Source: Mobula hypostoma (taxonomy: Eukaryota). From it: 64,000 nt of DNA. Under the pieces are notes generated by a model. It had not been told where the DNA came from. It saw only the letters and a list, made by a program, of their open reading frames with translations, and did no database searches. The stretch spans positions 80,974,001-81,038,000 of the forward strand of contig NC_086108.1 in NCBI RefSeq assembly GCF_963921235.1, given 5' to 3'. Shown here one piece after another: positions 22,801 through 25,800 of the stretch (positions are counted from its first letter, which is position 1; each line of letters begins with the position of its first letter). The position numbers and the translations under genes were made by a program.

Positions 22801-25800
22801 CAGCACATTTGGATTATGTAACATACAAAATAATCAAATAATTTATAATATTCAAAAGAGACCTAATTATGCATAATTATATCTGATTAAATTGTTTACT
22901 AGCATTTTAGAGAACACGTATTATGGACTGACACGCCAAAGCCACCATTTTCCTACAAGCTCTGCACCTTCCATTGAGAGTATACTAATGATCCTAATTG
23001 TCATGCACTTTACCTGCTTGTTTTGATTATTGTATGAATATTTACTTTTGAAATATTAGGAAATATTGTCTCCCATCTACATTTACCTCAATTGGAAAAC
23101 CACTTAAATTCTTGAAACTCTGTAGAGCTCATAATAATCCAGCACAACTCTGTTGCAAAATTAAACATAACTATCATCTTCCCATGGTGTCAGCATTAAC
23201 AAGTTTTTTTAAAAGTTATGTTTCAATAACTACAATTCAAAGCTGTGAAATTAAACAGAAAAGAAAGAGGCAAGGTCATAGGCAAAACAAGAGGGGAAAC
23301 GTTATCTGGGAGCTTTTAATCTCTAACAAGCTTCTTGAAAGGGAAGAAAAAGTAAATTCAAATGCAATTTACAGAAAGGATTTGATAGGTACTTCACAGC
23401 AAAGCAATCCAAGACAATGGAACAGTTTGGTCAATTAGACAGTAACTGTTTTACAATAACTAGCACTGACACGACAAGCCAAAGCCATCTTATTATTCTG
23501 ATAACAACATACATCAAAGTTGCTGGTGAACGCAGCAGGCCAAGCAGCATCTATAGGAAGAGGTGCAGTTGACGTTTCAGGCCGAGACCCTTCGTCAGGA
23601 CTAACTGAAGGAAGAGTGAGTAAGGGATCCCTGACGAAGGGTCTCGGCCTGAAACGTCGACTGCACCTCTTCCTATAGATGCTGCTTGGCCTGCTGCGTT
23701 CACCAGCAACTTTGATGTATGTTGCTTGAATTTCCAGCATCTGCAGATTTCCTGTTGTTTTTGTTATTATTCTGATACTGTTGTTCACGCTAATGCAATA
23801 AACTTTTCATTGGGTTATTTTCCTTTCTTCTTGGTGGCATCAACTTTTCTGGAATATGATAATATTCATTAAACAATTACTCATTGAACAAAAGCACAAA
23901 ATATAGTTTTTATGCGTCTATTTATATATCCAGGTGATAAATACTACCTTCAATGCAAGTAGACTCTTATTAATTTCTGCACCTTCCATTCGTGTTTGTC
24001 TGTCTGCACTGCTGGTATCAGCACCTCGCTCATTTCCAGCCAGATCAATGAAGGAAAACTGGCCATAAAGCTTATCATTCCTTCGCAGAATAATTTGAAA
24101 GATCGCATGAGACCTGGAAGAGTTATTATTTGCAGAAGTCTGCCCTGAGGTCCTATTAAAAAAAAGCAACATCATCTTTTAGAAGCAACCTTGTAGACTC
24201 AAGTTGGATACAAAAATACAATTAATTTCCTGTAAGGACTTTGAAATGCATGTGTGAATGAACTCTAAAGTGCTTCCATTTATTTTCAAATAACACTGCA
24301 CAACAAAGATTTTGGGCTGCTGATCATGAAAATCACCATGAAATTTCCCCATCAAAAAAAAATCTCAGCTATATTTGTCATTTCAATTTATAAATCAATT
24401 AAAATGTAGACCACAATGTAATCTGGGAAGTTTTCTATCTTGTCTATTCTATGCATTGCGTTTATGCATTATATCAGTTTGCGCATGTTCTACACGCATA
24501 GCATATTGTGTCTGCCATTGGTCCCCAACCACCGGGCTGTGGACCGGTACCGGACCGCAAAGCATGTGCTACCGGGCCGCGAGGAAACGATATGAGTCAG
24601 CTGCACCTTTCCTCATTCCCTGTCATGCTCACTGTTGAACTTGAATGCACGCGAAGTTATCAGTCAGTCATGAACCTACAACTACTCGATGAGTAAAAAT
24701 CAAACATCGCTTGAGGGTTTCTTTGGAAGAGATGGTAGGGAACATAAAAGGCCTAATGATGATGATAACGCAGAGACAGCTGAGGCCGAGACTGCAAAAA
24801 AAAAGCTTCCTTCAACAGAAAATACAACCAGTTGTACATAAAATATGGCTTTAATGCGACCGGTGACTTGCACGCTCCAAGCCCCCTGTGTGATATGTGG
24901 AGACAAGCTGTCTAATGAGGCATTGAAGCCCTCAAAACTGCTTCGGCACCTTGAGTCCAAGCACCCTTCACTTAAAGATAAACCCGTTGAGTTTTTTTGA
25001 GCGGAAAAACATGAGCAAGAGGGACAGAAGCAAGTGTTGAGAGCCACCACCTCCACAAATGCTGCTGCTCTGAGAGCGTTGTACTTAGTGGCTAGCCGTA
25101 TTGCTAAGGCTAAGAAGCCTTTCACTGTTAGTGAAGAATTGATTCTGCCTGCTGCCAAGGACATGTGTCATGAACTGTTGGGAGAAGCTGCAGCTAACAT
25201 AAGCTCCTCTTATTTACCCCTCGATCGTGACCCCACTAAGGAGCACCAGGCCATTGTCTCCCACACCATTACCAACTTTATCCGCTCAGGGGATCTCCCA
25301 TCCACTGCTACCAACCTTATAGTTCCCACACCCCACACTTCCCCTTTCTACCTCCTACCCAAGATCCACAAACCTGCCTGTCCAGGTAGACCTATTGTCT
25401 CAGCTTGCTCCTGCCCCACCGAACTCATTTCTGCATACCTTGACACTGTTTTATCACCCCTTGTTCAATCCCTTCCTATCTATGTTTGTGACACTTCCCA
25501 CGCTCTGAAACTTTTCGATGATTTTAAGTCCCCTGGCCTCCACCGCTTTATTTTCACCATGGATGTCCTGTCGCTATATACTTCCATCCCCCATCAGGAA
25601 GGTCTCAAAGCTCTCCGCTTCTTTTTGGATTCCAGACCTAACCAGTTCCCCTCTACCACCACTCTGCTCCGTCTAGCGGAATTAGTCCTTACTCTTAATA
25701 ATTTCTCCTTTGGCTCCTCCCACTTCCTCCAAACTAAAGGTGTAGCTATGGGCACCCGCATGGGTCCTAGCCATGCCTGCCTTTTTGTTGGCTTTGTGGA

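Follow-up and report, generated by a model that had tools for sequence, protein, structure and literature searches.

Genomic context and structure of the insert

The window analysed here, i.e. the whole stretch of 64,000 nucleotides, contains on its reverse strand an exon of a kinesin-13 (KIF2-like) motor gene (23948-24154) with AG/GT edges and KIF2/KIF2A as best match (E 2.8e-32). A contig from run X15, guessed to be an RNA sample, matches 23947-24154 only. Much of the window is probably intronic, and the element under study lies 170 bp into the intron following this exon. Various other mobile elements are found in its surroundings. A DNA-transposase-like frame (25001-25198 and 27950-28996; no Pfam match), which we take to be hAT/Buster-like, is apparently interrupted by a Penelope copy at 25.2-27.9 kb that is itself interrupted at ~26868-27463. 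A Tc1/mariner-type transposase fragment is located at 1958-2518 (Pfam HTH_Tnp_Tc3_2, E 9.5e-13), and degraded LINE-type reverse transcriptase (RT) copies, presumably CR1-like, are present at 41258-42886, 58242-58709, and 20318-20813 (Pfam RVT_1, E 1.3e-14 for 42035-42883).

The insert spans 260 bp (23504-23763) and is flanked by exact 14-bp copies of a target-site duplication (TSD; 23490-23503 and 23764-23777, 86% A+T); sequence comparison recovers exactly the limits given in a first-pass annotation. A pair of identical 14-mers at these places is expected by chance at ~1e-5, with 400 placements allowed for. The insert consists of two head-to-head copies of the 3' terminus of a Penelope-like element (PLE), numbered here so that element position +1 is the first base of a hammerhead core. 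After a single base at 23504 that belongs neither to the target nor to the native element, an inverted, tail-less copy on the reverse strand (23505-23628) runs from element +95 to -30. It comprises the duplicated arm (23505-23599) and native upstream sequence (23600-23628); the native sequence beyond 23628 is seen as loose ends in the contig comparison. The inner junction is a 10-bp palindrome (23623-23632) with one foreign, non-native base at 23629, and the forward copy (23630-23725) is 5'-truncated already at element -1. Only on the right side does a 38-bp tail follow (23726-23763, forward strand), which fits the 30-40-bp tail described for PLEs (PMC8557442; PMC11167929). The tail-less arm thus extends to -30, the tail-bearing one only to -1.

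The two arms (23505-23599 and 23630-23724) are complementary at 94 of 95 positions, again as annotated beforehand, with a CpG-type transition at 23570 as sole difference. As RNA, the full insert is predicted to fold into a single long hairpin (-207.7 kcal/mol, z = -24.8; none of 200 shuffled sequences was equally stable), outside of which the last 38 bases, the tail, stay unpaired. Since both arms are truncated to within the terminal repeat, no open reading frame is left in the insert; a stop-to-stop frame spanning it (23435-23806) was considered and gave no evidence of a gene.

Age and assembly support

Contigs of four of the 24 listed sequencing runs, none of which is recorded as an RNA sample, were compared with positions 23010-24269. 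In run X1 (organism A, possibly the source sample), contigs without any difference cross both outer junctions; two of these, one per flank, enter the insert in opposite element orientations. Runs X5 (organism B) and X9 (organism C) each yield one contig that joins 23489 directly to 23764. These empty alleles carry the TSD sequence in single copy and lack 274 bases, i.e. the insert plus one TSD copy. Their flanks diverge from the window at 17 of 986 letters (1.7%) in X5 and at 51 of 917 (5.6%) in X9. No empty allele was seen among the X1 pieces listed. The insert is a real and young insertion, and the recent activity proposed earlier on the basis of arm identity is borne out by the empty sites of the two other, related organisms. 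A second indel in the same intron separates organism C, which has six letters where the window has 64 (23263-23326).

The parent element and its sister insertions

At 11216-13839 and 25199-27950, the terminus found in the insert is contiguous with RT and GIY-YIG sequences. The individual Pfam scores lie below the curated cut-offs, both for GIY-YIG in the first copy (E 6.5e-4, 20.4 bits) and for RVT_1 in the second (E 1.7e-5, 25 bits). The RT of the 25-27-kb copy has 104 long protein homologues, the best 57% identical, and 27 of the 104 also contain GIY-YIG. Both coding copies show a CX4CX2C linker ahead of GIY-YIG. A CX2-5CxxC linker is a marker of Neptune/Nematis-type PLEs (PMC8557442), so that the parent would be an endonuclease-bearing (EN+) PLE with a Neptune/Nematis-type linker, a class suggested by this marker. 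As expected for an animal repeat, the terminus pattern had no match in metagenome, viral, or prokaryote-genome contigs.

Self-comparison reveals ~19 copies of the PLE terminus in the window, several of them arranged as fold-back insertions. A 190-bp copy (9292-9481) is bordered by a TSD matching at 14 of 14 positions (9278-9291/9482-9495), and its arms agree at 43 of 43. Its inverted arm has an internal start, where four bases match the TSD end, and its junction carries a 16-17-base patch of re-copied arm sequence. An older copy of 232 bp (18480-18711; TSD 18466-18479/18712-18725, 13 of 14) has arms of 81% identity, a near-symmetric junction, and hammerhead cores decayed in both arms. Its arms differ by a 2-base indel that, in the window alignment, also divides an older from a younger subfamily; two different RNA templates or later decay could account for this. 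At the window edge, a partial copy (1-287; arms 47 of 52) is broken off in its forward arm before the tail. The first-pass annotation had listed recurrences at 9292-9481, 18481-18711, and 1-279. All three are real, with the reservation that the cores of the 18-kb copy are decayed, and a fifth, coding copy had been missed.

This fifth copy (11216-13839, forward strand) is bordered by a 13-bp TSD (11203-11215/13840-13852); in it, degraded RT and GIY-YIG sequence separates an inverted tail-less arm from a tail-bearing forward terminus. Its inverted arm begins at the same terminus base as that of the 260-bp insert, and the forward end is also identical. These shared outer ends, together with the TSD, mean that the fold-back architecture spans a range from 190, 232, and 260 bp to 2.6 kb. 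Compared with the forward arm of the long copy, the inverted one is missing ~207 bases, and the break shows a 4-base overlap (11851-11854). The inverted arms at 23504 and 11216 both open with one identical non-native base, possibly a non-templated addition at initiation.

The outer ends fall into two main classes. Among 19 aligned arms, nine end at the far end of the tail and seven at or within ~8 bases of its near end, i.e. 16 of 19 at or near either tail boundary; the remaining three end at the window edge, at an interruption, or at an internal start. Three of four complete inverted arms start at the tail-less site. TSDs in the window are 13-14 bp long with 69-86% A+T, and the two arms of one copy carry common private variants. 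Solo termini occur as well. The tail-bearing terminus at 54372-54539, with a 14/15-base TSD, starts exactly at element -4, a frequent stop of fold-back arms, and a tail-less one at 46552-46650 has a 12-base TSD candidate and a similar start. A reading of 46553-46643 and 47523-47664 as one fold-back was rejected, because they share no TSD and each has a separate weak candidate.

Inner junctions

In the window, the junctions differ in all five copies, and the 29-base junction pattern of the insert occurs once. Genome-wide, 15 joints were listed (481 more exist), 12 of which link an inverted to a forward arm. All 12 differ from one another and from the junction of the insert. In the other three, the inverted arm is linked to the tail itself or to a point a few bases ahead of it; in the listed joints 23590/23600 to 23725 and 23601 to 23716, which stem from elsewhere in the genome, the second arm amounts to hardly more than the tail.

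The longer arm stops between +3 and -4 in 11 of the 12 listed fold-back joints, and at -3 or -4 in eight. This site presumably bears an initiator-like motif following a pyrimidine-rich, splice-acceptor-like stretch. An RNA 5' end could explain the stop, and a subfamily boundary effect could contribute: another subfamily diverges from the reference at -3/-4, so that the clustering there may be inflated. For the same reason, a pile of loose ends at 23602 was rejected as proof of an RNA start. Microhomology of one to three bases is present in four of the 12 joints and absent from eight.

Several other junction types are found repeatedly, with depths of ~8-50 times that of the flanks in X1 and up to ~85 times in X5, and small shared-junction families are possible. 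Contig depth is not copy number, and summed contig depth was rejected as a substitute for it; the best-supported listed joint reaches a depth of 785 against 4.5-8.3 million summed over the arms, with counts in X1 saturated. Independent recurrence explains these joints, as they share one truncation hot spot and in many cases show microhomology.

Hammerhead motifs

The earlier description of a hammerhead core in each arm holds for the core letters, which are intact in both, while helix I is broken in both. The inverted arm carries a minimal type-I motif on the reverse strand (23567-23602), in which the change at 23570 breaks the first helix-I pair. In the motif of the forward arm (23630-23662), helix I is reduced to 1 bp, its 5' strand being lost at the junction. 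The two cores lie ~30 bp apart on opposite strands, so that any one RNA contains only one motif in sense orientation. Helix II has a predicted pair probability of 0.0 in the full insert, on either strand, versus 0.09 and 0.7 in the isolated motifs; in this fold model, the 95-bp hairpin buries both motifs. Complete motifs with a helix I of 4-5 bp exist in the window at 9345 and 39079. The motif of the terminal repeat fits the minimal type-I hammerhead of PMC4209133. An Rfam search found no hammerhead at E<=1 and returned one chance-level miRNA match elsewhere.

The inner junction was also considered as a ribozyme cut site. Cleavage would fall at element position 28, where none of the 12 listed joints and none of the five window junctions is located. 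Just upstream of the hammerhead, at 23600-23628 and 27770-27820, the sequence is splice-acceptor-like (a branch-like motif, a pyrimidine run, and two AGs); in the D. virilis Penelope, the 5' end of helix I is also where the intron terminates (PMC4209133).

Comparison with known systems

EN+ PLEs are known for complex insertions in which an inverted 5'-truncated copy is adjacent and a tail of 30-40 bp occupies one end (PMC8557442). The same pattern, with TSDs and palindromes at the junction, was described in rotifers (PMC3846280). The insert combines the features of this class, namely an RT-GIY-YIG parent, an inverted truncated copy, a one-sided tail, an A+T-rich TSD, and a hammerhead motif. 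It shares with published cases the head-to-head arrangement, the tail on one side (38 bp here; 31 bp in Pen2a_Av), the TSD, and the short junction palindrome. Unlike in published cases, both copies lie within the terminal repeat, and the TSD has 13-14 bp instead of the 8-10 bp of the rotifer examples. In Schistosoma mansoni, dual minimal hammerheads located 100-700 bp apart on opposite strands were ascribed to truncated PLEs (PMC4209133). The motifs described here resemble them in their opposite orientation, the unpaired base 5' of helix II, the palindromic two-base helix III, and, in intact copies, a helix I of 4-5 bp. The cores are much closer (~30 bp), and a TSD, a tail, and an empty site are defined here, for which the main text of PMC4209133 has no description.

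In vitro, a PLE protein was shown to nick the two strands of its target and to extend both of them, using two internal RNA start sites that bound the tail and not requiring hammerhead cleavage (PMC11167929). This protein belongs to PAc, a Poseidon element of Anolis carolinensis from the Penelope/Poseidon clade, and is predicted to be a dimer (PMC11167929). As in PAc, the copies of the window show two fixed ends one tail apart, A+T-rich targets, and ends off the hammerhead cut site. In contrast to PAc, the parent has a CX2-5CxxC linker; PMC11167929 gives no explanation of inverted insertions.

Animal non-LTR retrozymes consist of head-to-tail tandem repeats with ribozymes on the same strand and give rise to monomeric and circular RNA (PMC7229834; 10.64898/2026.07.22.740005). 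Being non-coding, a few hundred bases long, equipped with a type-I hammerhead, and linked to a PLE terminus, the insert looks similar, yet it is one head-to-head pair with helix I broken.

In the twin priming of L1, which the route proposed below resembles, both target nicks prime cDNA, and an inverted 5' part comes to lie within one TSD. The inverted and direct parts of such L1 copies are not known to overlap, whereas the insert contains one and the same terminus in two copies, each begun at its own fixed start site.

Origin of the insert and alternative explanations

We consider the insert a one-off, dead-on-arrival by-product of PLE insertion, located at the short end of the ordinary range of inverted insertions (probability roughly 85%). 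The gradation up to the 2.6-kb RT/GIY-YIG copy, the TSD, and the one-sided tail agree with the earlier proposal that PLE reverse transcription and integration made it. For the route, the following sequence of events is suggested, to which we would give about even odds. At an A+T-rich target, the GIY-YIG domain would set one nick in each strand, with 14 bp between the two; a TSD and an empty site are shown here, and nicking of two strands was demonstrated in vitro for another PLE (PMC11167929). Reverse transcription would have two fixed start sites within the element RNA, one at either end of the 38-nt tail. Two classes of ends are observed in the window, and their role as start sites is proposed by analogy with PMC11167929. 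Each nick would yield one antisense cDNA, one tail-bearing and one tail-less, and both would end prematurely, in many cases at the 5' border of the hammerhead, where the stops cluster and which may be an RNA 5' end. Some repair process would then join the cDNA 3' ends head to head, leaving the junction types observed (microhomology of 0-3 bases, or a few added bases). With two antisense cDNAs joined end to end, the TSD and the arm asymmetry would be explained, as would outer ends that are fixed and a junction that varies. The start of the inverted 9-kb arm at a 4-base match to the TSD end is what target priming predicts. According to this best explanation, the hammerhead motifs are passengers in the insertion process. 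No account of a two-nick route for PLEs was found in the literature searched (main texts of mostly open-access papers), and both PMC8557442 and PMC11167929 treat the origin of inverted PLE insertions as an unsettled question.

The main competitor concerns this mechanism only, since its product would still be a PLE by-product. Here, a single cDNA, or else an antisense RNA serving as template, would fold back and be copied on itself (self-priming or snap-back), and the endonuclease would resolve the product at the tail (PMC3846280; PMC8557442). It is a serious rival, even if we hold it to be rather unlikely. Palindromes occur at inverted junctions of rotifer PLEs (PMC3846280) as well as here, at 23623-23632 and in the 9-kb and 18-kb copies; a third of the listed fold-back joints (four of 12) have microhomology, and the 11-kb copy agrees with self-priming on an antisense template (PMC3846280). 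The private variants common to both arms fit self-copying and, equally, one source locus. The forward arm exceeds the inverted one in the 11-kb and 1-287 copies, an arrangement also compatible with snap-back. In the insert itself, the tail-less arm reaches -30 and the tail-bearing one -1, so that neither can be a fold-back copy of the other. The unique 29-base spacer sits on the tail-less arm, whereas a tail-primed fold-back would leave such surplus on the arm with the tail, and no tail can arise if the tail-less strand is the one that folds back; the remaining eight of the 12 joints lack microhomology. Simple snap-back fits poorly, given that the tail is missing from the arm with the greater 5' reach, and of the two routes named in the first-pass annotation, self-priming and template switching, the latter fits better, as does the joining of two cDNAs. 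The longer tail-less arm would favour two cDNAs primed at two nicks.

Three further explanations concern the nature of the insert as such. Re-mobilisation as a unit, in which a read-through transcript of a non-autonomous mini-element retains the single-stranded tail, is copied in trans by PLE protein, and passes its junction on to daughter copies, appears improbable. The single-stranded tail outside the long hairpin and the junction types at 8-85 times flank depth in two organisms are in its favour, and PLE termini can mobilise other sequence in trans, with putatively non-autonomous PLE derivatives on record (PMC3846280; PMC8557442). Opposed to it are the unique junctions of all five window copies, the hot spot and the microhomology that let recurring joints arise independently, and the outer ends, which vary too (9-kb copy). 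A retrozyme-like origin, i.e. the excision of a monomer or circle by two hammerheads followed by reverse transcription, is hardly credible. It could draw on the presence of two motifs, 30 bp from each other and intact in their core letters, and on the proposal that animal retrozymes come from PLE termini (10.64898/2026.07.22.740005). The motifs are, by contrast, on opposite strands with both helices I broken, helix II is predicted not to pair in the full insert on either strand, the cleavage site matches neither ends nor junctions, and no tandem array of the insert unit was found. Since retrozymes are same-strand tandem repeats, the insert is not a retrozyme, and the retrozyme-like or independent class suggested earlier is not supported, also in view of the varied junctions and the gradation into the 2.6-kb coding copy. 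Finally, the palindrome might be an assembly artefact, which we regard as very improbable. None of the eight X1 pieces listed, of 85,949, spans the inner junction, so that this point rests on the assembly, and short-read assemblies have trouble with inverted PLE structures (PMC8557442). Against an artefact speak the difference-free contigs over both outer junctions, which enter in opposite element orientations, the agreement of the exact TSD with the empty alleles of two organisms, the non-identity of the arms, and a spacer of asymmetric native sequence.

Implications

The architecture and the opposite-strand hammerhead pairs are already in print, and the insert described here is in all likelihood no new self-replicating ribozyme element. 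Its residual value is mechanistic: a young copy with a known empty site shows an asymmetry of the arms beyond what snap-back offers. A more far-reaching scenario, which we judge decidedly unlikely, would have some fold-back mini-insertions re-mobilised by the PLE protein via the single-stranded tail as small non-coding hairpin families with shared junctions, a kind not found in the literature searched. Their junctions would record double target priming in vivo, carried out by a PLE enzyme acting as a dimer on short RNAs with a start at the hammerhead 5' edge. A genome-wide count of arm asymmetry could separate the models of PLE inversion cheaply. For the host, the insert places a near-perfect RNA duplex of 95 bp in an intron of a KIF2-like gene, 170 bp from the splice donor, which makes it a possible, putative substrate for editing or splicing.
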